Of a stretch of 64,000 nucleotides of DNA, positions 4,207 through 37,498 are shown in pieces. Both the position numbers and the translations under genes were made by a program. The notes beneath the pieces were generated by a model. It saw only the letters and a list, made by a program, of their open reading frames with translations. It did no database searches and was not told the DNA's origin. The DNA is from an uncultured Chloroflexota bacterium. Lineage in GTDB: Bacteria; Chloroflexota; UBA11872. Within the stretch, counting starts at the first letter, position 1; each line of letters starts with the position of its first letter. The DNA is taken from positions 3,752 through 67,751 of the forward strand of contig CAZFVB010000002.1 of assembly GCA_964522375.1 (NCBI GenBank). The letters are read 5' to 3'.

Positions 4207-5323
4207 CAAGCCGATATCCAAGCGAGCCGGCATATATGTCTAGAAGTTGATCAACGGACCTCCGCCACGTCATCGCGGCTACCCGACGACGGGCCCCCGC
4301 AGCTAGGGCCTCCCACCGCGCATCGTCAGTCAGCAGTTCCCGGACCGCCCGCAGAAGTTCGCTCGCATTGTCAGGGGCAACAAGAAGGCCATTCATATTG
4401 TGTACAACCGGTTCTTCTGCACCGCAGTCACGAGTACTTACTACGGGAGTTCCACAAGCATTCGCTTCAAGCAACACCAAACCGAACCCTTCAAAGTCGC
4501 TTTTCCACGACCGATACGGCATTACGACCAAACGGGCCCTGTGGTACCACTCGGCAAGTTCTTGCTGGCTAACCACACCTGTGAAAGTGACCCGGCCCTG
4601 TAGATCAAGCGCGTTAATCCGTGCCTGCAACCGTTGGACATACGGAGACGAAGAATTGTAGGGCCCGACAATCACATAACGATCAGCGACACCTTCTGAC
4701 CTAAGCGTCGCAAACGCCTCCAACATTACGTCGTAGCCTTTGCGTGGCTTCGGCTCTCCAACAGACACGATTAATCTTGGCTCGCGTACGGGAGGATTGG
4801 ATTGGGCAAAATCATCAGCTCTTACCGCAAGCGGAACCACAGAAGCCTGCAGCACTCCTGTATCCGCCTCGATACGTTCTCTCGTGTATCGACTGATGGC
4901 CGGAAGACCTCGAGCTCGCCGTAGCGCCCAGCGAAGAGCCATCCCTTCAATACGGGGACGGCCTGACGGAAGTGCATAAGTCCCGACCAGCGAAACAAAA
5001 TACGGACGCTGACCGGAAGCTGCGGCAACAACGGGAGCAAAGGGCTCGATCATGCAATGAACTACATCTACTCCCCGAAGCGCTCGGACAAGAGGTGCAA
5101 ATGTCCGAATGAACACTCGCACGGGATGGCGACTCCCATACTGGAACGACGGAATACTCAAGTGATCAGAGTGAGAACGTAGTTTGGGGATCGCAAGCCG
5201 ATCCCGTGGACTCACCAAACGAACATCCACCCCTGAGGAAATTAGCTCATCAGCAATTTCACCAGCGTACCGACCCCACCCGGTAGTGGGATCGAGTACA
5301 TCACTGACCAGTGCTAACTTCAT
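4199..5323 (-). CDS. Glycosyltransferase family 4
   Basis: Begins MKLALVSDV...; carries FEGFGLVLLEANACGTPVV (E-x7-E); 374 aa. Confidence 0.85.
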   Translation of the reverse strand: MKLALVSDVLDPTTGWGRYAGEIADELISSGVDVRLVSPRDRLAIPKLRSHSDHLSIPSFQYGSRHPVRVFIRTFAPLVRALRGVDVVHCMIEPFAPVVAAASGQRPYFVSLVGTYALPSGRPRIEGMALRWALRRARGLPAISRYTRERIEADTGVLQASVVPLAVRADDFAQSNPPVREPRLIVSVGEPKPRKGYDVMLEAFATLRSEGVADRYVIVGPYNSSSPYVQRLQARINALDLQGRVTFTGVVSQQELAEWYHRARLVVMPYRSWKSDFEGFGLVLLEANACGTPVVSTRDCGAEEPVVHNMNGLLVAPDNASELLRAVRELLTDDARWEALAAGARRRVAAMTWRRSVDQLLDIYAGSLGYRLDE

Positions 5324-7890
5324 GTTCTATCAATCCGCCAACCCAACACGAGCAAAACCAGCAATACACCAACTCCGAGCATCGACAAGAAAATCGCCTG
5401 AGGAAATCCAGGGGGCATGTACGACATAACGATGGTGTGAACCCCGCTGTTATTGACAGGAACCCCACGCATCATCGTATTGACAGTAATCATTTCTACA
5501 GGCTGGCCATCAATAGTGGCTTCCCATCCTGGATACATCGCCTCATTAAGAACCACAAGTCCGTGTCCATCCGTTACCACTTGAATCTTCAGGTGGCGTG
5601 GCGAACGGAGAATCTGATACTCCAGCAAGCCTGTTTCAGAAGCATCACGCGGCAACCCAGGATCACGGTCTACCATAGCGACAGCTGGTCTACGCGCAAT
5701 CGCATCCCAAACGTCGATAGATGCTGAAGCCACATCAATGGTCTTCCAGTCCCGCGCGAACCACACACGTGGAAACCAATCACGTAATTCATAGACGTAC
5801 AAAGATTGTTGAACCGGCGACCAGTTCGGCAGATCGATCAACCCGGATTGACGTTCTACCAGTTGCGGATGCTCAAGCTTCACCCCAGACAGCACATACC
5901 GAACGTTTCCAACGGCCAAAGCTGGCAACCTGCGACCCAACATGTCGGCTCGCTCGTCGCCATTGATTCCTGAATCAACAGCAAAACCATTAACGGTGGT
6001 CCGTTCGCTACCGACGTATGCAAGATAGTCGGCTACAGGACGGGACATAAGGTTTTCATATCCGTCGATCGAAGCCCATGCCCGAGTAAATGGCAAATTC
6101 GGGGTCAATGTCTCGTTAAGAAAAATGTATTCGAGTAAATCACGCCGTGACCGGCCAATATCAGTGCCGGCGGCTGTCGACAGCTCAAATTTCTGGGCCA
6201 ATCCCCGATATGAGAAGACCCGCCACTCATCGGTCGAATGGCCGGGCATAACAGCAGCCGCTCGTGGTTCTCGTGCATACCAACCAGTGTCGCTGGTAGG
6301 AATCATATGACCCGGGGCCACCAAAACATCGACCACGAGAATGCCCACCAGCATCACCTGTGCACGCTGCGCTTCGATGTGGCGGCGCATAAAACCCCAT
6401 AAAACAGCTGCCGTCAGGAGCGCCGCCAACAACGTCCAGCGAGGTGTCCAAAACTCAAGACTGAATGCGGTCGCCATCCGCTCATAAAGCTGATCGAACG
6501 TCCGGTAATAACGCTCGGCGGAGAGAAATCGGCCCTCGGAACCCACAATAGCCCGATCGATATAGTCGTATCCATACGGAACTATTACGAACGCTAATCC
6601 GCTCAACACAATAGTCGCTATCACAGTACCCGCACCAACAAGCCCAGCAGCCCACAGCCAAATCTTCGTTACCCATTTGGCGGCAACACTCCCCCGAAGA
6701 TCAACCGAACGAATCTGATCAATACCAATCGCCGCAAGATAAGCCAAGCCAAAGCTCGCCACGATCCCAAACCTCGCCGGTTGCCGAAAAAACCCAAAAA
6801 GCGGGATCTTGTGCAGCAAGGGAAACCCGAGACTGAACGAGCCCATGGCGAAGATCCAGCTCAGGATGACCAGACCAGTCAAGAACCACACCAACCGATG
6901 GCGATTTCTCGAACAAAGAGCCAAAAGGGCAAGAGCCGGTGTTGCAAAACCCAAATACAACAGTTCTTCGGCGTTGAGCCGATCACCCAACACCTTTGGA
7001 ATCTCAAAAGACGGGAAGAGGTACCCGAGAACCAGGCTCCATGGCGGAATCGAGCCCTGAGCCGCGATCTCAAAATCAAGCCCAGACGCACGTACAGAAA
7101 GCGCGGTGGTACTCACCGTAGGTAACAAACGAACCGCACTGACAAGCAACCCGGCAGCCACCGCCACGGTGATCCATACGATCGACTTCGCAGCAGAGCG
7201 AAATTTTCCATCACGCCATGCGCACAACAATCGATACGAGATAAAGATCATCCAGGTAAACCCAAACAACAGCGCTATTTGCGGATGCCCCGCAACCCCC
7301 ATGACCGCCGCACACAACCCAAGCAGCGCCAGATACCGTCTATGCCCACGAGTAACTAACTCAATCGCGGCAATGCCAGCAGGAAGAGCAAAGTAAATGT
7401 CGGCATAGTTGAGGAACCGAGAAGTTGCAAACACAAAGGCGCCGTACGTAAACAGAAATGCGGCGAGATACGCAGCCAGCCGACTCAATCCCCAGACCCG
7501 GCCAAGCCAATAAGCCGCCACCGCCGCAAACACTAACCCCAGCGCCAATTCCAATGTGTATGCACGAAGAGGATCGAGAACCCTCAGCAACATCCAAGTC
7601 AACGGATAGAACCAGCCAAACTCAGAAAACGCGATAGGAAATCCCGATAACATCCCATCCGTCCAGAGCGGAATATGCCCGTCCCGGATACCGTTCGCCA
7701 GAACCGTATATCGGGGCTGATAACTCAGAAGTAGATCAAGATCCAGCCACGCAGATCCGTTAAATAAAAGCTCTCGATAAAGCAGCAAAAGGGGCCATAG
7801 CAAACCAACCCCAACTAAAACGCGACGTCGTGCTAGAGACCCGGTGGTTGCTGCATGTACAACCCGATCCATAACCTGTCCAAATCTCAT
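5320..7890 (-). CDS. YfhO-family polytopic membrane protein (extracytoplasmic glycosyl transfer to polymers)
   Basis: N-terminal motif GHIPLWTDGMLSGFPIAFSEFGWFYP matches the YfhO signature. Many TM helices precede a ~350-aa C-terminal soluble domain. Start ATG at 7890 overlaps the upstream GT4 stop (ATGA); the 7947 start in the ORF track is probably too long. Confidence 0.7.
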   Translation of the reverse strand: MRFGQVMDRVVHAATTGSLARRRVLVGVGLLWPLLLLYRELLFNGSAWLDLDLLLSYQPRYTVLANGIRDGHIPLWTDGMLSGFPIAFSEFGWFYPLTWMLLRVLDPLRAYTLELALGLVFAAVAAYWLGRVWGLSRLAAYLAAFLFTYGAFVFATSRFLNYADIYFALPAGIAAIELVTRGHRRYLALLGLCAAVMGVAGHPQIALLFGFTWMIFISYRLLCAWRDGKFRSAAKSIVWITVAVAAGLLVSAVRLLPTVSTTALSVRASGLDFEIAAQGSIPPWSLVLGYLFPSFEIPKVLGDRLNAEELLYLGFATPALALLALCSRNRHRLVWFLTGLVILSWIFAMGSFSLGFPLLHKIPLFGFFRQPARFGIVASFGLAYLAAIGIDQIRSVDLRGSVAAKWVTKIWLWAAGLVGAGTVIATIVLSGLAFVIVPYGYDYIDRAIVGSEGRFLSAERYYRTFDQLYERMATAFSLEFWTPRWTLLAALLTAAVLWGFMRRHIEAQRAQVMLVGILVVDVLVAPGHMIPTSDTGWYAREPRAAAVMPGHSTDEWRVFSYRGLAQKFELSTAAGTDIGRSRRDLLEYIFLNETLTPNLPFTRAWASIDGYENLMSRPVADYLAYVGSERTTVNGFAVDSGINGDERADMLGRRLPALAVGNVRYVLSGVKLEHPQLVERQSGLIDLPNWSPVQQSLYVYELRDWFPRVWFARDWKTIDVASASIDVWDAIARRPAVAMVDRDPGLPRDASETGLLEYQILRSPRHLKIQVVTDGHGLVVLNEAMYPGWEATIDGQPVEMITVNTMMRGVPVNNSGVHTIVMSYMPPGFPQAIFLSMLGVGVLLVLLVLGWRIDRT

Positions 7891-24149: not shown

Positions 24150-24282
24150 GTATAGCCCCAGCTAGGGACCCAGAGATATTAGCGCAGCGAACAGGAAATC
24201 CGACGTATTGACCTCGCGTGTTACGCTAAATTGCATTACGGTCCCGATGAGAGTCGGGAGCCCCTTGGAGCTCCGTTCGCGC

Positions 24283-26587
<2,305 letters not shown>

Positions 26588-28097: not shown

Positions 28098-28586
28098 ATG
28101 ACCGGAACAAACAATATGACGCCTATTTCATTAGGAGTGCAAGCACCAGAGTTTGAGCTTGCGTCAACCAATGGCGGAACGTTCGTCCTGAGTTCAGAAC
28201 GCGGAAAATCAAACTTGGTCATTTTTTTTCTTAATTCGACCACCGGGGGAACAGATACCCAGATCGCAGAATCGTTTCGAGACGCGTCGGAGTTGTTTCG
28301 TGGGGCACGAACCACAATCGCAGGAATATGCTCGGCACCACTCGACGAGCTACAAGCATTAAAAGAAAAGCTATCCCTTCCGTACGAACTCCTGAGCGAC
28401 GACGAAACGACTGGCCTCATATACGGAGTGCACGTACGACACGGATTTGGCCCTTTTTCACGTCAAAAGTTTTCTCGAAGCACGTTTCTCCTTGATCGAA
28501 CAGGAGTAATTCGACGAATCTTCCGGGATTTGGACGTGAAAGATCACATCAATGAAGTACTGGCATCACTCGATACTGACCTGTAA
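28098..28586 (+). CDS. AhpC/TSA (Bcp-like) thioredoxin-fold protein lacking the peroxidatic cysteine
   Basis: Alkyl-hydroperoxide-reductase-like fold signature (VIFFLNSTTGGTDTQ replaces F-P-x-D-x-T-P-G-C-T). GGAGAAA RBS 5 nt upstream of the ATG. Confidence 0.55.
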   Translation: MTGTNNMTPISLGVQAPEFELASTNGGTFVLSSERGKSNLVIFFLNSTTGGTDTQIAESFRDASELFRGARTTIAGICSAPLDELQALKEKLSLPYELLSDDETTGLIYGVHVRHGFGPFSRQKFSRSTFLLDRTGVIRRIFRDLDVKDHINEVLASLDTDL

Positions 28587-28605: not shown

Positions 28606-28636
28606 TTTCTCAGATATGCCAATAACCCTATATAAT
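28606..28636 (+). promoter_or_regulatory. Putative sigma-A-type promoter of the pyr operon
   Basis: TTCTCA at 28608-13, 17-bp spacer, then TATAAT at 28631-36 (extended tatataat). It lies ~10 nt upstream of the PyrR-binding leader. Confidence 0.45.
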
Positions 28637-28642
28637 CATCTG

Positions 28643-28745
28643 GCCTTTAATCCGACCCGGCGAGGCGGAAAGGCATAGCGCTGAGATCAATTCATCCCCT
28701 CTCGGCGGACTAAAGGCCTTCGGGCCTTTTTTTTTTGCCCAAGAG
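28643..28745 (+). promoter_or_regulatory. PyrR-binding RNA attenuator (binding loop / anti-antiterminator plus intrinsic terminator) in the pyr operon leader
   Basis: UUUAAUCCGACCCGGCGAGGCGGAAAGGC resembles the PyrR binding-loop consensus (UCC-GAGAGGCU). It is followed by the GGCC-UUCG-GGCC hairpin and a U10 run, immediately upstream of pyrR. Confidence 0.7.
28712..28736 (+). terminator. Intrinsic (rho-independent) terminator hairpin of the pyr attenuator
   Basis: AAAGGCC-TTCG-GGCCTTT stem-loop at 28712-28729 followed by T10 (28727-28736). Confidence 0.8.
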
Positions 28746-28761
28746 ATTCGTGGGAGGCTGT

Positions 28762-29343
28762 GTGAAGTCGAACGCCGACGGCGAGCGGTTGGTGATGTCG
28801 GCTGACGATTTGCGTCGTGCCCTTACACGTATTGCGCACGAAATTGTCGAGAGAAATCGTGGCCCTGCAAATCTAGTCTTTGTAGGCGTGCCTAGACCAG
28901 GGCCAGTTCTTGCAAAACGACTGGCACACGTCGTTGCCGAATTCGAGAAAGATCCCATTCCAACTGGATCAATCGACATTTCGCTCCACCGGGATGATCT
29001 CAAGCAACGGAGCACTACCCCAGCGATTTACCCTACCGAGATCCCAGAGGACGTTACTGGTCGGGACGTAGTACTCGTTGATGATGTCCTCTACACCGGA
29101 AGATCGGCACGGGCAGCACTAGACGCGCTCACAGACTTTGGCCGACCAAAATCAATCCAACTTGCCGTCGTGGTTGATCGTGGCCACCGCGAGCTACCAA
29201 TTAGAGCCGATTATGTAGGCAAGAACGTACCCACAGCAGCAGCAGAGAGCGTTCACGTGCACCTTGTTGAATTGGACGGTGAAGACTGTGTCCGAGTCAT
29301 CAACGACGGTGAGAAGCAGGAAAGCCATGCCGCTGCACCGTAG
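28762..29343 (+). CDS. pyrR: Bifunctional pyrimidine operon regulatory protein / uracil phosphoribosyltransferase PyrR
   Basis: DLRRALTRIAHEIVERNRG and the PRPP-binding VVLVDDVLYTGRS motif. GTG start at 28762 has GGGAGG 4 nt upstream; alternative starts are the ATG at 28795 and the ORF-track 28735. Confidence 0.85.
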   Translation: MKSNADGERLVMSADDLRRALTRIAHEIVERNRGPANLVFVGVPRPGPVLAKRLAHVVAEFEKDPIPTGSIDISLHRDDLKQRSTTPAIYPTEIPEDVTGRDVVLVDDVLYTGRSARAALDALTDFGRPKSIQLAVVVDRGHRELPIRADYVGKNVPTAAAESVHVHLVELDGEDCVRVINDGEKQESHAAAP

Positions 29344-30268
29344 ACATCTGATCGATATCGCCGATTTTTCTCGGGATGAGTTTGATTCCGTATTGGAAAC
29401 AGCCGTGTCTATGCGACAAGTGCTGGACCGTCCTATCAGTCGCGTTCCAACCCTACGTGGAAAATCTATAGTTAACGTGTTCTTCGAAGCCAGCACACGG
29501 ACCCGCGTATCCTTTGAACTCGCCGGGAAATCGCTTAGTGCGGACGTCGTAAACGTCGCCTCTTCCGGAAGCAGCATTGAAAAAGGCGAATCGCTCATTG
29601 ACACATTTCATACGATTCAGGCGCTTGGAGCCGATCTTGTCGTACTTCGGCACCCAAAAGCCGGTGCTCCAGATCTAGCCGCCCGGAACCTTTCGTGTAG
29701 TGTCGTAAATGCTGGTGATGGCCTAAGGGGCCATCCCAGCCAAGCGCTGCTTGACCTATTCACGGTTCAACAACATACCGGAGACCTCGAGGGCTTAAAA
29801 ATCGTGATTGTGGGAGATGTACTCCATAGCCGAGTGGCCCGTTCCGGCATCTGGGCATTTGCACGAATGGGTGCTCATGTATACCTAAGTGGTCCACCTA
29901 CGCTCCTGCCACAGCACTTCAATAAGCTTGTTAATGGCGACGGCATAGTCCGAATAGAGTATGACCTCGACCGAGCCATTGACGGTGCTGACGTCGTCAT
30001 GGCCTTAAGGATCCAAAAAGAACGCATGCACTTAGGGATGCTGCCTGATCTTCGTGAATATGCCCGCCGCTGGGGAATTACATCAGCGCGCCTTTCACGT
30101 GCTGATCGACGAGCCCTGTTGATGCATCCGGGTCCTATGAACCAAGGAATTGAAATATCTCCTGATGTGGCCTACGGAAAACACTCAGTCATATCTGAAC
30201 AAGTAACAAACGGCGTGGCGGTGCGCATGGCGATTCTCTACCTATTACTTGCCGGAACCCCCACATGA
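29327..30268 (+). CDS. pyrB: Aspartate carbamoyltransferase catalytic subunit
   Basis: STRTR carbamoyl-phosphate motif (FFEASTRTRVSFE) and HPSQALLD. Start ATG at 29327 with AGGAAA RBS; overlaps the pyrR end. Confidence 0.95.
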   Translation: MPLHRRHLIDIADFSRDEFDSVLETAVSMRQVLDRPISRVPTLRGKSIVNVFFEASTRTRVSFELAGKSLSADVVNVASSGSSIEKGESLIDTFHTIQALGADLVVLRHPKAGAPDLAARNLSCSVVNAGDGLRGHPSQALLDLFTVQQHTGDLEGLKIVIVGDVLHSRVARSGIWAFARMGAHVYLSGPPTLLPQHFNKLVNGDGIVRIEYDLDRAIDGADVVMALRIQKERMHLGMLPDLREYARRWGITSARLSRADRRALLMHPGPMNQGIEISPDVAYGKHSVISEQVTNGVAVRMAILYLLLAGTPT

Positions 30269-30885
30269 CCGGATATACGGCTCTCCCCTTACGATTAATC
30301 TTGCCGGGCCTATACCAATGGACTGTAGCTTGGCCTCGTTATCCGTTGGAGTCCTATCTGATCGAAACCGGTGATGGCTGCATAGCAATTGATCCCCAAG
30401 ACGCACATCCAAACGTGTTTGGAAACAGTCACAGTAATGTCCGACATGTCATCCTCACGAACCATTACCACGAACGAGCAGCAGCGATATGGAAACATCG
30501 ATATGGAGCCACTGTATGGGCGCCAAAAGCCGATATGAATAACCTTGAAACCATTGCTGCCGACGAGGCTTACTCCCAAAACTCCATGTTGCCTGGCGGG
30601 ATACAGGCGGTTCACCTTGGTGGAATCACAGAGGGTGAACATGCGTTGCTGTGGCCAGAAAACCGCGGAGTGCTCTTTGTAGGCGACGCTCTAGGCACTA
30701 CAAGCTACTGGACCCATGGCGAAGGTGAACTCGGCGCACATCCGAAATTTCGCCCGCCCACTCGGCTCGCAAAATTACTGGAGCTTGATTTCACCAGCTT
30801 GGTAGTAGGACATGGTGAACCCATCCTGGATCAAGCAAAAACCGCTCTGGCCAAGCACCTGGAAATGATGGCCCATGACACCTAG
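30265..30885 (+). CDS. MBL-fold-like protein wedged between pyrB and pyrC (a bbc-like bridging ORF) with a degenerate HxHxDH motif
   Basis: 206 aa. IETGDGCIAIDP, HVILTNHYHERAA (partial HxHx), AVHLGG, FVGDALG and VVGHGEP correspond to MBL motifs 1-5. ATGA overlap with the pyrB stop and an 11-nt overlap with the pyrC start. Confidence 0.6.
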   Translation: MTGYTALPLRLILPGLYQWTVAWPRYPLESYLIETGDGCIAIDPQDAHPNVFGNSHSNVRHVILTNHYHERAAAIWKHRYGATVWAPKADMNNLETIAADEAYSQNSMLPGGIQAVHLGGITEGEHALLWPENRGVLFVGDALGTTSYWTHGEGELGAHPKFRPPTRLAKLLELDFTSLVVGHGEPILDQAKTALAKHLEMMAHDT

Positions 30886-32230
30886 ACAACCCCTCGTTAT
30901 TAGAGGAGGACGTCTCATTGACCCTTCTCAAAAATTGAACCGGATTGCCGACCTTGTGATCGAAGACGGGAAAATCTCAGCAATAGATCCGCCCGCAGGT
31001 CAACTTCCACTCGGGGAACCGACCGTTCTGGACGCCTCCGGGCTTGTAGTTACCCCGGGGTTCGTTGACATCCATGCGCACCTCAGAGTTCCGGGATTCG
31101 AATATAAAGAAACACTTGTTTCAGGAACTCGCGCAGCTGCAGCCGGAGGGTTCACCACTGTTTGTGCCATGCCTAACACAAACCCTGTTATCGATTCGCG
31201 CAGCGTTCTTGAATCAGTTTTAGAACAGGCAACAGAACAAGCCGTTGTTAATGTCCACGTTCACGCAGCAATCAGTATTGGACAAGAAGGTGTACAACTC
31301 GCTGAACTAGGTGACTTAAGTGACGCTGGTGCAATCGGGTTTACTGATGACGGCATACCGCTCGCAAACTCCAAGCTCATGCGCCACGCGCTGGAGTACG
31401 CAACCCAGCTTGGCCGCCCAGTAAGCAACCACGCGGAAGATCCAGCCCTTATTGCCGGTGCAGCTATGCACGAAGGGGTGATTTCCGCCCGGCTAGGTCT
31501 TCCTGCTGCGCCACGACAAGCTGAAGAAATCATGCTGTCCCGAGACTTGTTACTTGCCGAGCTAACAGCAGGCCGCTATCACTGTATTCATGTCAGCTCA
31601 GGAGGTTCAGTCGATCTCATAAAACGCGCAAAGGACCGAGGCGTAAATGTCACTGCCGAGGTAACACCCCACCACCTTACGCTTACCGACGCGTTGATTG
31701 CCGGAAGAACTGAGCCAGTAAGTGCCGCTTTACCGCCTTACGACACAAACACCAAGGTTGCGCCTCCGTTACGAGAGCAATCGGACTGTGAAGCCTTAAT
31801 TCAGGCGTTAGTAGACGGCACGATTGACTGTATTGCAACCGACCACGCTCCTCACGCTTTACACGATAAAGATGTGGAATTCGCAGATGCTGCCGTCGGC
31901 TTTACCGCACTCGAAACAGCCCTCGCGTCTGTCCTGAGTTTAGTTCACACGAACCAGCTTAAACTCGCAACAGCAATCGAACTTCTGACCGTAGGTCCGG
32001 CGCAATGCTACGGATTGCCAGCAGGCACACTAAAGCTAGGAAGCCCAGCGGATGTCACAGTCTTCGACCCTGACGAAGAATTCATCGTCGACCCGACAAG
32101 CTTTCACTCACGTGGGAAGAACACACCACTTGCCGGACTCCCGTTGCATGGTGTCGTTCATCACACGTTTGTAAACGGCACTCATGTCTATGACCGATCA
32201 TCTCCTGAAGCTGGAACTCTGAGTGCCTGA
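30875..32230 (+). CDS. pyrC: Dihydroorotase
   Basis: PGFVDIHAHLRVPG (metal-binding HxH) and the DHAPH-type motif IATDHAPH; 451 aa. Confidence 0.9.
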   Translation: MTPRQPLVIRGGRLIDPSQKLNRIADLVIEDGKISAIDPPAGQLPLGEPTVLDASGLVVTPGFVDIHAHLRVPGFEYKETLVSGTRAAAAGGFTTVCAMPNTNPVIDSRSVLESVLEQATEQAVVNVHVHAAISIGQEGVQLAELGDLSDAGAIGFTDDGIPLANSKLMRHALEYATQLGRPVSNHAEDPALIAGAAMHEGVISARLGLPAAPRQAEEIMLSRDLLLAELTAGRYHCIHVSSGGSVDLIKRAKDRGVNVTAEVTPHHLTLTDALIAGRTEPVSAALPPYDTNTKVAPPLREQSDCEALIQALVDGTIDCIATDHAPHALHDKDVEFADAAVGFTALETALASVLSLVHTNQLKLATAIELLTVGPAQCYGLPAGTLKLGSPADVTVFDPDEEFIVDPTSFHSRGKNTPLAGLPLHGVVHHTFVNGTHVYDRSSPEAGTLSA

Positions 32231-33419
32231 GCGACCATCCATTCTTGCGCTTGAAACCGGCGATGTGTTCTATGGCTTTGCTTTCGGCGCTGATGTCACA
32301 GGTACAGGAGAAGTCGTGTTCAATACAAGCATGACTGGCTACCAGGAGATATCAACCGACGCATCTTACCGAGGCCAGCTTGTCGTGATGACCTATCCGC
32401 TAATAAATAATTACGGTATTAACAAAGACGACGTTGAATCTCGCAGACCATGGATATCCGGCATGGTGGTTCGAGAACTCGCAACTACCCGCAACAACTG
32501 GCGAATGGCATCGGATCTGAGCACCTATTTTTGCGAGCATGAAATTCCTGGAATCGAAGGCATCGATACAAGAGCACTGACACGTATTCTTCGGACGCGA
32601 GGACCGCAGCGCGGCGTGATAATTCAAGCACCTACAAATATTGCCAATGGCTCTGATCGTTTTTCGTGGATTAAGGGAAGGTCCGCTGCTGCAGCAGAAT
32701 GGGCCGAAAGCCAGATCCAAGAGGCTCAGACTCTTGCTCCATATTCCAACCATGACTACGTGAACGACGTAACCACTCAAAATCCATATATAGCTGATGA
32801 AAGCCCATGGGAACCATGGCCTACCGCCAAAGTTCGAGATAACAAGCCACGAATCACGCTACTGGACGTAGGTGTGAAAACAAATATTGTCCGCTCACTG
32901 ACACATCGTGGCTGTGTGGTCACAGTGCTTCCATATGGGTCCAGCATCGCCGACGTGGAGAGTACAAATCCCGATGGTGTTGTTGTCTGTAACGGACCGG
33001 GAGACCCTGAGCAAGCCGGTCAAGCTGTAGAAACGGTCCGAGGTCTAATAGGTCGTCTACCGATAATGGGTATCTGCCTCGGCCACCAAGTTCTCGGTCT
33101 AGCAATCGGCGCCACCACGAGTCGCCTCCCCTTCGGTCACCGGGGCGCCAATCAACCGGTAAAAGAACTACTGTCGGGTCGCGCCTATATCACCTCCCAA
33201 AACCATGGTTACCAGGTCGATGCCTCATCAATACCTCAGGAAAGCGGATTCCGGGTAAGCCACATCAATCTTAATGACGGGTCTGTTGAAGGCCTAGCCC
33301 ACGAATCACTCCCGGTATTTTCGGTCCAATACCATCCCGAAGCCAGCCCCGGGCCACAGGATAACCAGTACTTATTTGACAGGTTTTTGAACCTCATCGA
33401 AAAGGAACCCTCCGCATGA
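32223..33419 (+). CDS. carA: Carbamoyl-phosphate synthase small (glutamine amidotransferase) subunit
   Basis: GICLGHQ catalytic-Cys motif and a CPSase small-chain N-domain. GTG start overlaps the pyrC stop by 8 nt. Confidence 0.95.
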   Translation: MPERPSILALETGDVFYGFAFGADVTGTGEVVFNTSMTGYQEISTDASYRGQLVVMTYPLINNYGINKDDVESRRPWISGMVVRELATTRNNWRMASDLSTYFCEHEIPGIEGIDTRALTRILRTRGPQRGVIIQAPTNIANGSDRFSWIKGRSAAAAEWAESQIQEAQTLAPYSNHDYVNDVTTQNPYIADESPWEPWPTAKVRDNKPRITLLDVGVKTNIVRSLTHRGCVVTVLPYGSSIADVESTNPDGVVVCNGPGDPEQAGQAVETVRGLIGRLPIMGICLGHQVLGLAIGATTSRLPFGHRGANQPVKELLSGRAYITSQNHGYQVDASSIPQESGFRVSHINLNDGSVEGLAHESLPVFSVQYHPEASPGPQDNQYLFDRFLNLIEKEPSA

Positions 33420-33455
33420 ATTCTCCCCGCAACACGTTTGGCCCAAGAAAATCCC

Positions 33456-36400
33456 ATGCCTGATCTTTCGTCAGTCCTCATTATTGGCTCCGGTCCTATT
33501 GTGATTGGCCAAGCCGCAGAATTCGACTATGCCGGCACACAGGCGTGCAAGGCGATGCGGGAAGAAGGTGTTCGATCGATTCTGGTGAATTCAAATCCAG
33601 CAACAATCATGACTGACGAAGATGTGGCAGACCGGGTATACATTGAGCCCCTTACCGTTCCGGTTCTCGAGCGTGTAATCGATCGCGAAAGACCCGATGG
33701 GTTACTCGCCTCAATGGGTGGCCAAACCGCTCTTAACCTCGCGGTAGAACTCGAAGACGCCGGGATCCTCGAGAAATACGACCTTAAGCTACTTGGAACT
33801 CCTGTTACAGCAATACAAGATGCCGAGGATCGCGAACGATTCCGGAACCTAATGCACGATATTGGCGAGCCGGTTCCAGATAGCCGGATCGTCACGTCCT
33901 TACCCGAAGCATGGGATTTCGCACGATCATGCGGATTCCCGCTCATCATCCGCCCCGCCTACACACTCGGAGGAAGTGGCGGCGGAGTCGCCCGCCACGA
34001 AGATGAATTTGAGGCCGTAGTGACTCAGGGACTACAAACCAGTCCAATCCGCCAGGTGCTCGTAGAACGTTCCTTAATCGGATGGAAAGAAGTTGAGTAC
34101 GAGGTCATGCGGGATGGTGGGGACAACTGCATCACAATCTGCAACATGGAAAATTTTGACCCCATGGGAGTCCACACTGGAGATTCTATTGTCTTCGCCC
34201 CTTCTCAAACGCTGAGCGACAAGGAGTACCAAATGCTCCGAAGCGCTTCGCTAAAGATCATTCGAGCCTTGGGGGTGGAAGGTGGATGCAACGTCCAATT
34301 AGCCCTAGACCCCAACTCCTTCGATTACTTTGTAATTGAGGTGAATCCACGAGTTAGCCGGTCCTCAGCACTCGCCTCAAAAGCTACCGGATACCCAATC
34401 GCCCGAATTGCAGCCCGAATAGCACTGGGTTGGAAACTTGACGACCTTCGTAATCCGATTACGCAGAGCACATCAGCAGCATTCGAACCTTCCCTTGATT
34501 ACGTGGTTACCAAGATCCCACGATGGCCTTTTGACAAGTTCAGCCATGCTGACCGTCGCCTCGGAACCCAAATGAAAGCTACCGGCGAAGTAATGGCCAT
34601 TGAACGAACAATTGAAGCATCGCTAAACAAAGCGGTTAGAGGAATGGAGAACGGTGGTCGAACCCTTCTGTGGGAGGACTCTCGATGGACCGACGATGAA
34701 TCGGCCATCTGGTGGCGCATTGAACACGCCCATGACGAACGACTGTGGGCAATCATGGCTGCACTTCGGCGCGGTGCTACAGCATCTGAGATTTCCCGGA
34801 GATCGGGGATTGATCGATTTTTTGTCGACAAGATGGCTAATTTACTCACGACCGAACGTCGATTACTAGGCAATCCCCTGTCACCAGACCTGGTATGGCA
34901 CGCCAAACGACAAGGGTTTTCGGACCACATGATCGCCTCGTTGAGCGATACGCTTCCGGAAAAAGTCCGTGAATTACGGGAAGCCTCGGATATACGGCCG
35001 ACATACAAAATGGTCGATACGTGTGCTGCAGAGTTCGACGCAGCCACTCCCTATTTTTGGAGCACGTACGAAACTGAAAACGAAGCTGTTCCGTCCGGAA
35101 ATCCCTCCGCTGTAGTACTCGGGAGCGGCCCAATAAGAATCGGCCAAGGTATCGAGTTCGATTACTGCTCAGTACATTCGGCATGGGCCTTAGGTGAAGC
35201 CGGATTCGACAGCGTTATGATCAACTCAAACCCTGAAACCGTCAGCACCGACTTCGATACGTCAACACGACTGTACTTCGAAGCGCTTGATGAAGAGAGC
35301 GTTACAGAAGTCCTGCAAAACGAAAAGACCTCCGGTAGTAACGCACCTCCACTAGTCGCCCAATTCGGTGGACAAACCGCGATAAACCTTGCTGGCCCCC
35401 TTTACACCGCTGGGTTTGAAATCGCAGGTAGCGGCGTTGCGAGCATCGATCAAGCCGAGAATCGGGATAAATTTGATCGTTTCCTGGAAAAACTGGGCAT
35501 TCTGCGTCCCCCGGGAGCTGCTGTAACCCAAATGTCCGATGCCCTCGACATAGCCGAACGGCTCGGATACCCAGTGGTTGCTCGTCCCTCGTACGTGCTC
35601 GGTGGCCGTGCCATGCAAGTTGTTGATGACCGAGCCGATCTCGAGCGCTACATAGCCGAGGTCGTCCAGCCATCTCCTGAACACCCAGTTTTAATCGACA
35701 AATACCTTCAAGGTCTTGAGGTCGAGGTAGATGCGATCTGCGACGGTACTTCCACACTGGTACCTGGAATCATGGAGCATATTGAACGAGCGGGGGTTCA
35801 TTCTGGCGACAGTTTCGCGGTCTACCCGCCGATAAGTGTCGATGCAGAGCAACAAGCTTCGCTTTTAGACGCTACCCAACGAATTTGCGCTGGACTCAGC
35901 GCACGAGGTCTCGTCAACATCCAGTATGTACTGCACGACGGCAAAGTCTATGTGATTGAGGTCAATCCTCGAGCCAGCCGGACTGTACCTTTCTTAAGCA
36001 AGGCGACCGGCATACCTATGGTCAAGCTCGCGACCAAGACAATGTTTGGCTCCACTCTAAAAGAACTTGGATACGAGTCAGGATTAGCCGAAACTCGACC
36101 GTTGGTAGCCGTAAAAGCGCCGGTTTTTTCAATGTCAAAGCTTTCAGGCGTTGACACATATCTCGGGCCGGAAATGAAATCCACGGGTGAGGTAATGGGC
36201 CTAGGCGCTTCATTCCCCACCGCATTGAGAAAAGCGATGATTTCAGCTGGGATCGACGTCCCTGAACAAGGTGACGTGCTGGTCTCCATTGCTGACCGAG
36301 ACAAAGCTGAAGCCGCTCCGATCATCTCAAGATTATCGGAGCTTGGGTTTGGATTGGTGGCCACGGAAGGAACAGCAGCGTTTATTGAATCGTCTCTTGA

Positions 36401-36668
36401 ACTTTCCGTGCAAAGAATCAGCAAGATCAGGGCGGGAAGTCCAAATGTTGAAGAATTCATTCGTGAAGGACGTGTGGTCTTGGTCATTAACACTCTGACC
36501 GGACGCCGCGAAGCACTTCAGGATGGTCACTACATGCGACGGGCTGCGGCCGAAACCCAAACGCCTTGCTTAACTTCTCTGGATACGGCCCGAGCATTAG
36601 TGGATGCGATTGCCGACAGAGAAAATCCGTACCAAGTACAAACTATAGATGAGTATCGAGGAGACTAG
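33456..36668 (+). CDS. carB: Carbamoyl-phosphate synthase large subunit
   Basis: Duplicated ATP-grasp halves ([21 protein letters not shown] ... [18 protein letters not shown]) and a C-terminal MGS-like domain; ~1070 aa. Confidence 0.95.
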
Positions 36669-36670
36669 GG

Positions 36671-37498
36671 TTGCGCAAGCGGCTTGAAGTTGCGCATGTG
36701 ATTCGAAATGTTCAAATCACACAGCGCCTCTGGTGGTGTGAATATAACGCTCCTGAAATTGCGTCTTCCGCCTTACCCGGCCAATTTGCCCACGTTCTAT
36801 GCAGCGAGCCTGAGCAGTTTGATCCATTACTTCGACGACCATTGAGTTTTTCAAGAATTGATCCATCCAAAGGCCATGTGGCCTTTCTCCTCGACACTGT
36901 CGGACGGGGCACATCGTGGCTGGTGCAACAACCCACCGGCGCCGAAATTGACATGCTAGGCCCGCTCGGCACCCCGTTTGAATTCCAATTTGCCGAATCA
37001 AACGTACTCTTGGTCGGTGGTGGAATCGGTCTGGCTCCACTAATTGCCCTGGCTGACACGGCCCCACAACGCGGTATCAACGTCCGCCTGCTTGGTGGAG
37101 GACGAGATGTCGAACAGATCACGCCTCAAGAATGGCTACACCCAGACACGACGTACCTGATCTCCACCGATGACGGAACCGCTGGCCACCACGGATTCGT
37201 CACCGACCTTGTGCCGGAACACTACAACTGGAGTGACCAAATCTGCGTTTGTGGACCAACTCCCATGATGCAGGCGATGGCACAACTTTCGCCTCGGCTT
37301 GCCAAGAAACATGGGCACGTCCCGGTCCACACATCTCTCGAGGCGCGAATGGGCTGTGCGATGGGTGTCTGTTATTCGTGTGTCGTCAAAACAACCGAGG
37401 GGGTCAAGCGTGTCTGTCATGACGGCCCGGTATTCGACCAAAACCACCTGACGTGGGAATGGAATCACGTAGCTCCGGTGCACGGTCAACAGAATTGA
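36671..37498 (+). CDS. pyrK: Dihydroorotate dehydrogenase electron-transfer subunit (FAD / 2Fe-2S)
   Basis: RPLSF FAD-binding motif, GGGIGLAP NAD-binding motif and a C-terminal C-x-MGVC-x-SC Fe-S cluster. TTG start has GAGGAG 8 nt upstream and sits 3 nt after the carB stop. Confidence 0.85.
   Translation: MRKRLEVAHVIRNVQITQRLWWCEYNAPEIASSALPGQFAHVLCSEPEQFDPLLRRPLSFSRIDPSKGHVAFLLDTVGRGTSWLVQQPTGAEIDMLGPLGTPFEFQFAESNVLLVGGGIGLAPLIALADTAPQRGINVRLLGGGRDVEQITPQEWLHPDTTYLISTDDGTAGHHGFVTDLVPEHYNWSDQICVCGPTPMMQAMAQLSPRLAKKHGHVPVHTSLEARMGCAMGVCYSCVVKTTEGVKRVCHDGPVFDQNHLTWEWNHVAPVHGQQN

Follow-up and report, generated by a model that had tools for sequence, protein, structure and literature searches.

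A metallo-beta-lactamase-fold gene of the PF14597 family, with a reduced metal site, between pyrB and pyrC in a clade of uncultured Chloroflexota

The DNA considered here, a stretch of 64,000 nucleotides (nt) from contig CAZFVB010000002.1 of an uncultured Chloroflexota bacterium (the window, below), carries a pyrimidine biosynthesis operon in which an additional gene, which we call X, is lodged between pyrB and pyrC (Table 1). X encodes a protein of 206 amino acids (aa) with the metallo-beta-lactamase (MBL) fold, and its neighbors on either side encode the catalytic chain of aspartate carbamoyltransferase (ATCase; homologues of 313 aa) and a type-I dihydroorotase (DHOase) whose best PDB matches are the Aquifex enzyme, at 1e-106. 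The first-pass annotation of this DNA had described a 206-aa open reading frame joined to pyrB by an ATGA overlap and to pyrC by an 11-nt overlap, and the sequence agrees with that description to the nucleotide: the ATG of X (30265-30267) and the TGA of pyrB (30266-30268) share the letters ATGA, and the ATG of pyrC at 30875 sits in the 3' end of X, the stop codon of which occupies 30883-30885.

Table 1. Features of the pyr operon, of its leader and of gene X, with two further genes of the block (positions in the window)
Feature	Position	Strand	Evidence or remark
Promoter-like site TTCTCA-18-TATAAT	28607-28636	+	promoter scan
Leader terminator: GC hairpin AAAGGCCTTCGGGCCTTT and T-run, just upstream of pyrR	28712-28738	+	terminator scan
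pyrR (attenuation protein/uracil phosphoribosyltransferase)	28735-29343	+	NF003549, 231 bits; PDB PyrR matches at 1e-59; exact start uncertain
pyrB (ATCase catalytic chain)	29327-30268	+	Pfam and NF002032, 386 bits; likely start ATG 29327
X, MBL-fold frame, 206 aa	30265-30885	+	divergent PF14597 (2p97-like) subfamily
X, reduced motif 2, T65-N66-H67-Y68-H69-E70-R71	30457-30477	+	sequence, alignments
X, motif-3 region I121-T-E-G-E125-H126	30625-30642	+	
X, G140-D141 (motif-4 Asp), then the clade's most conserved stretch ALGTTSYWTHGE..LGAHP.R	30682-30756	+	
X, H183, motif-5 His	30811-30813	+	either His or Asp elsewhere in the family
pyrC, type-I (Aquifex-like) DHOase	30875-32230	+	TIGR00857, 413.8 bits; HxH and TDHAPH motifs intact
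carA	32223-33419	+	
carB	33438-36668	+	
pyrK (Fe-S subunit of dihydroorotate dehydrogenase B)	36671-37498	+	operon end
Lactamase_B_3 gene (PF13483, 228 aa)	24208-24894		overlaps the pyrG start (24884) by 11 nt
AhpC/TSA peroxiredoxin gene	28098-28586		between purA and pyrR

Is X a gene at all? Two X-specific peptide patterns, scanned over 185,579 species-representative genomes, returned 34 loci, every one of them in a metagenome-assembled genome (MAG) of an uncultured Chloroflexota bacterium, and tblastn found the order pyrR-pyrB-X-pyrC-carA kept in 35 distinct loci wherever the contig extends, so that the lack of conservation in related pyr operons that might have undone the first-pass annotation is not what is found. 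The protein is 205-206 aa long in the 34 scanned loci and 205-208 aa across the 35, and none of the 35 sequences contains an internal stop. Of the 34 scanned loci, 33 read TGATG or ATGA at the pyrB/X junction, and X overlaps pyrC by 4, 8 or 11 nt in the scanned set; in the 35 related loci the overlaps are 1-4 nt at pyrB/X (with one exception) and 4-11 nt at X/pyrC, and even P0025, which of all subfamily members diverges most (208 aa, 52% identity), overlaps pyrC by 11 nt. All subfamily members (at least 52% identical to the X of the window) with enough flanking DNA lie in the pyrB-pyrC slot, and none was found outside it. The median ratio of nonsynonymous to synonymous substitution (dN/dS, pairwise Nei-Gojobori) is 0.18 for X, beside 0.10 for pyrB, 0.14 for pyrC, 0.13 for pyrR and 0.17 for carA, and X has been retained over a synonymous divergence that approaches saturation (median dS about 0.9). 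X evolves about as slowly as carA and is under purifying selection. The possibility that X is a chance open frame is next to nil given its constant length, its freedom from stops and its dN/dS, together with the confident predicted fold and the profile match to a solved structure described below. X is a real gene.

The exception at pyrB/X is a single locus, read twice (L001/L022; 5852-6001), in which 148 nt separate pyrB from an X that starts with GTG; the gap may reflect a frameshift in the assembly concerned, or a pyrB that is truncated there at its 3' end. The MAG jk18xAbins.55 holds two divergent pyrR-pyrB-X-pyrC-carA blocks (L012 on JAJEDE010000003 and L032 on JAJEDE010000015), with X copies 70% and 59% identical to that of the window; a mixed bin is a more probable explanation than a duplication.

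Based on an AlphaFold2 model built from a 23-sequence alignment, the strands and helices of X follow the order of the MBL sandwich (predicted local distance difference test [pLDDT] score of 75; predicted template modeling score of 0.79), and the protein has the alpha-beta/beta-alpha architecture of the superfamily; the sole stretch of low confidence comprises residues 142-164 (pLDDT 40-43). Two methods agree on the best structural neighbor, 2p97 (Ava_3068 of Anabaena variabilis; Foldseek template modeling score of 0.77), the founder of Pfam family PF14597, Lactamase_B_5, which was deposited as a hypothetical protein. PF14597 is the only Pfam match of X, in which no PyrI domain was found; the window protein itself scores 27.2 bits against a gathering threshold of 28.4, and 12 close homologues have a precomputed PF14597 match. 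A profile of 28 diverse family members matches 2p97 over its full length with an E value of 1.6e-41, and X carries the family signature T-N/S-x-x-H-x-R, G-E, G-D, [H/D]-G. The two proteins are only 22-24% identical, and X differs from 2p97 in histidines that are conserved specifically in the pyr clade (H67, H126, H151 and H159) and in the GDALGTTSYWTHGE loop; the match to 2p97 thus gives X its family, not its activity.

How distinct is X within that family? Some 30 close homologues, at E values below 1e-46, came out of a word-indexed search of 5.8 billion proteins, the next matches being generic MBL proteins at 1e-8, and a clade-profile HMMER search of 1.84 billion representatives returned 1025 proteins at E values of 1e-3 or less, only 6 of them below 1e-30. 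Remoter relatives with a length near 200 aa score strongly as PF14597 members (72-169 bits), and some of them carry a fused Cupin_2, Lip_prot_lig_C, PGPGW or Smr domain. Judged by these searches, X is a sharply separated subfamily of PF14597. We regard the arrangement as a known operon in a new form, carrying a new subfamily of a known, uncharacterized protein family, and we found no earlier study of it.

The metal site of X is where it departs most clearly from its better-known relatives. Canonical binuclear MBLs of the glyoxalase-II type (8ewo, 2zwr and Limnocylindrales-type proteins) have the same fold, and motifs 1 (D43), 4 (GDAL) and 5 (VGHGEPIL) of X match theirs column for column. In hhalign, X aligns to a canonical glyoxalase-II-like MBL alignment with 99.6% probability, its segment ILTNHY--HERA being paired with ILTHKHGDHAGS, which entails a deletion of two residues in X; the profile alignment to Thermus thermophilus TTHA1623 (2zwr) places the identical deletion. 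Where the canonical enzymes have H116, H118, D120 and H196, X has N66, Y68, the deletion and I121, whereas H69 (canonical H121, the last His of HxHxDH), D141 (D221) and H183 (H263) are kept. H126 does not replace the lost motif-3 ligand, for in both profile-profile and profile-sequence alignments it sits five residues past the motif-3 His column, in a non-ligand column. With all three Zn1 ligand positions lost and D120 deleted, X has no Zn1 site; what it retains is a site-2-like set (His, Asp, His/Asp) beside R71 and E125. On TIGR03413, the model for GloB (hydroxyacylglutathione hydrolase), X scores 19.9 bits against a cut-off of 200.8.

In total, the two independent profile alignments support the view that X would be unable to form the usual di-metal centre, as the first-pass annotation had anticipated in proposing altered or absent di-metal catalysis. 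The details of its motif assignment need revision. Of the motifs 1, 3, 4 and 5 that it had recognized, the first and the last two align as described, and motif 3 does not, its His column being occupied by I121; motif 2, given as HYHE-R without the DH, is indeed non-canonical in either alignment and is more reduced than had been claimed, with only H69 in register.

Five residues (P44, T65, H69, R71 and D141) do not vary across 28 family members that span 28-70% identity; D43, E125 and G184 are nearly invariant, and position 183 is His or Asp. Within the pyr clade both D141, the motif-4 Asp, and H183, the motif-5 His, are invariant. The reduced site is a signature of the whole PF14597/2p97 family and not a product of decay in X. 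One-metal chemistry on this fold has a precedent. The mono-zinc beta-lactamases of subclass B2 (CphA type) carry Asn116 and catalyze from the second metal site only, and X likewise has Asn at this position. The likeness goes little further: the B2 enzymes retain H118, D120, H196 and C221, of which X lacks all but a residue at 221, where it has Asp instead of Cys, and the two have no sequence relationship beyond the superfamily.

Relatives of X also exist away from pyrimidine genes. Its nearest sister clade, P0107-P0111, has 35-42% identity to X and shares the LESY, HER, GDALGT..W and LG.HP motifs; it was located on nine metagenome contigs, all of them free of pyr genes. In two contigs whose neighborhoods were scanned, the homologue is flanked by a galactonate dehydratase gene (NF010624, 411 bits) on one side and an M29 aminopeptidase gene on the other. 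The loop that follows motif 4, GDALGT..W.....LG.HP, is common to X and to this clade outside pyr operons, and since the pocket residues are shared in the same way, both serve the family's own function and not an interface specific to PyrB or PyrC. With regard to the sister clade itself, an N-acyl or N-carbamoyl amino acid substrate, suggested by the enolase-superfamily neighbor, was ruled out once that neighbor proved to be galactonate dehydratase, and a lactonase-like reading is a weak one. The two marine metagenome contigs L048 (1955-5269) and L049 (3814-6921) carry an acyl-CoA dehydrogenase-like gene downstream of the homologue.

What does the operon look like without X? The nearest outgroup, the next PyrB group at 67-69% identity, was read on two long contigs (L057, 3.3 Mb, and L058, 3.7 Mb), and both show the block ABC-2 gene, Lactamase_B_3 gene, pyrG, purA, pyrR, pyrB, pyrC, carA, carB. 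Here (5001-7300) pyrB stops 5 nt before a GTG-initiated pyrC, and X is absent. Given the identical synteny and this 5-nt gap, X was inserted into an existing tight junction, and given that the outgroup operon lacks it, the pathway can do without it. Between the X clade and the outgroup, both PyrB and PyrC align end to end, at equal length and with indels of only 1-2 residues; no clade-specific docking insertion was found in either protein by this comparison, and the Aquifex-like FT/SDDG and HxH motifs are present in both groups. X is a lineage-specific accessory insertion that is dispensable in the sister lineage.

Could X then be a mere passenger, a PF14597 hydrolase that has nothing to do with pyrimidines, that happened upon a compact and strongly expressed operon, that is kept for an unrelated function of its own and whose position is fixed since its removal would disturb translation of pyrC? 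The dispensability of X in the outgroup is what such a history would predict, as are the mixed contexts and domain fusions of other PF14597 members, and another unrelated gene has entered the block in the lineage of the window. In the window an AhpC/TSA gene stands between purA and pyrR; it is missing from this position in L057 and L058, and a different gene occupies it in L002, which implies that the block accepted more than one insertion. A passenger would not be expected, however, to be confined to one slot in every subfamily member that could be placed, nor to belong to a subfamily so sharply set apart (6 representatives below 1e-30) and retained over such synonymous divergence. We therefore consider the passenger explanation rather unlikely.

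Several other features of the block deserve mention in their own right. The window's Lactamase_B_3 gene is a second member of the MBL superfamily; its protein has no NCBIfam match, and its pairing with pyrG (CTP synthase) recurs in L057 and L058, where the two genes are also adjacent. A conserved ATCase motif differs between the clades, reading GDG-L/T/W-R-G-HP in PyrB of the X-containing clade and GDG-WHA-HP in that of the outgroup. No pyrD follows pyrK; the genes from 37534 onward are convergent and encode a gluconate 2-dehydrogenase subunit 3-like protein, a GMC oxidoreductase and an aldo/keto reductase.

A gene in this position also calls to mind Thermus. Van de Casteele et al. (J Bacteriol, 1997) reportedly described, in the pyrR-led operon of Thermus strain ZO5, an open reading frame "bridging" pyrB and pyrC, bbc, for which a role in feedback inhibition is said to have been suggested, and the first-pass annotation had likened X to it. 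We reached the corresponding loci by way of T. thermophilus PyrR (1ufr, from the PDB alignment), its homologues and their contigs, which covered 11 Thermus and 2 Meiothermus pyr loci, strain ZO5 not among them. No gene was called between pyrB and pyrC in any of the 13: pyrB overlaps or abuts pyrC in all 11 Thermus loci, a gap of 23 nt separates them in the 2 from Meiothermus, and the junction is crossed only by alternative-frame open stretches of the kind expected in GC-rich DNA. In nine of the Thermus/Meiothermus loci, tblastn with 28 family members found no homologue of X (best E value, 0.05), and the genome-wide pattern scan had returned Chloroflexota only. All that speaks for the comparison is an analogous name and position, and we judge homology of X with bbc to be very improbable; the comparison is best dropped.

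How is X likely to be expressed? Based on the promoter and terminator scans and on folding, the leader region (28607-28742) is probably a PyrR attenuator that controls the X-containing operon. In the minimum free energy fold of the leader, 28642-28649 and 28711-28718 form a competing long-range helix that is incompatible with the terminator, and no Rfam PyrR element was matched in the leader at gathering or E-value thresholds; a further 5' hairpin lies at 28644-28673. No convincing terminator was found around X. From this layout, expression of X is most likely tied to pyrimidine nucleotide levels. The overlaps of X with its neighbors are genuine but unexceptional, because overlapping or near-touching junctions are the rule across the operon: pyrR and pyrB share about 17 nt (taking 29327 as the pyrB start), pyrC and carA share 8 nt, and 2 nt separate carB from pyrK.

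Taken together, these observations lead us to propose, tentatively and at somewhat less than an even chance, that X is a mononuclear accessory hydrolase or a ligand-binding protein that is co-regulated with ATCase and DHOase. In this model, the common ancestor of a single Chloroflexota subclade would have gained a compact PF14597-family MBL-fold gene between pyrB and pyrC, which selection then kept. It would be transcribed with pyrR-pyrB-pyrC-carAB-pyrK from the promoter and its PyrR-type attenuator, and, being translationally coupled on both sides, would be made whenever ATCase and DHOase are made. We posit that the protein binds at most one metal, via H69, D141 and H183 with E125 and R71 nearby; that these pocket residues have been retained speaks for chemistry on a ligand or metal and against a dead scaffold. 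We speculate that its substrate could be a carboxylate- or phosphate-bearing metabolite of the carbamoyl-aspartate/dihydroorotate part of the pathway, for example a side product that X would clear. There are also points against this proposal. We found no functional study of PF14597 in the literature, and no member with an assigned substrate, metal or activity; the galactonate dehydratase and M29 peptidase context of the sister clade offers no consistent substrate clue; and the slot that X occupies, between two genes whose products assemble stoichiometrically in systems of the Aquifex type, would fit a subunit equally well.

That last point raises the question of whether X could instead be a non-catalytic or regulatory third component of an ATCase-DHOase complex, held at a fixed ratio by coupling, that stabilizes the complex or confers nucleotide feedback. 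Accessory or inactive-enzyme-like partners of ATCase are encoded next to pyrB in other bacteria, the familiar cases being PyrI in the enterobacteria and, in Pseudomonas, an inactive DHOase-like chain of the ATCase, and no pyrI-like gene was seen in the present operon. These accessory chains have folds unrelated to that of X, and X matches no PyrI or amidohydrolase model. A further precedent lies closer, in that PyrB and PyrC of the window are most similar to the Aquifex pair, in which DHOase and ATCase form a stoichiometric 6+6 dodecamer (PMC3880350). The invariant slot with overlaps on both sides, the loss of the canonical catalytic di-metal centre and the low confidence of residues 142-164, the most conserved segment of X, when the protein is folded alone, as would be expected of a segment that becomes ordered upon binding, all agree with a subunit role. 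In contrast, the same operon operates without X in the sister lineage, where PyrB and PyrC are as long as in the X clade and free of compensating indels; the conserved loop and the pocket residues recur in homologues outside pyr operons; overlapping junctions are general in this operon; and no PyrB-X or X-PyrC fusion was found. Two long PyrB proteins were considered as candidate fusions and rejected, X being absent from both: P0395 (495 aa) contains an internal duplication of about 180 residues, and P0446 (392 aa) a proline/alanine-rich low-complexity insertion. On balance we think a subunit role distinctly unlikely, and in the model preferred here X is no obligatory structural subunit. The first-pass annotation had suggested a part in the pathway as a DHOase-associated or regulatory subunit; conservation of X in pyr operons speaks for this idea, and the outgroup without X weakens it insofar as the part was meant to be a necessary one.

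What would X mean for the pathway and for its family? The pyr operon is among the best-studied of biosynthetic operons, and extra conserved genes in its pyrB-pyrC core are unusual; here an MBL family with half a metal site is fixed in the pyrB-pyrC slot in at least 34 species-level genomes. The scope is that of one uncultured Chloroflexota clade, the pathway works without X, and the sister lineage, which has the same operon and no X, provides a natural control. It is possible, if doubtful, that X is an unrecognized component of de novo pyrimidine synthesis in this lineage, be it a third subunit that tunes the type-I DHOase-ATCase complex or subjects it to feedback, or a mono-metal hydrolase that clears a side product of the carbamoyl-aspartate/dihydroorotate step. 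If either were true, it would be the first function for PF14597, and X offers an entry point both to the function of that family and to the question of whether type-I DHOase-ATCase systems can have accessory partners.

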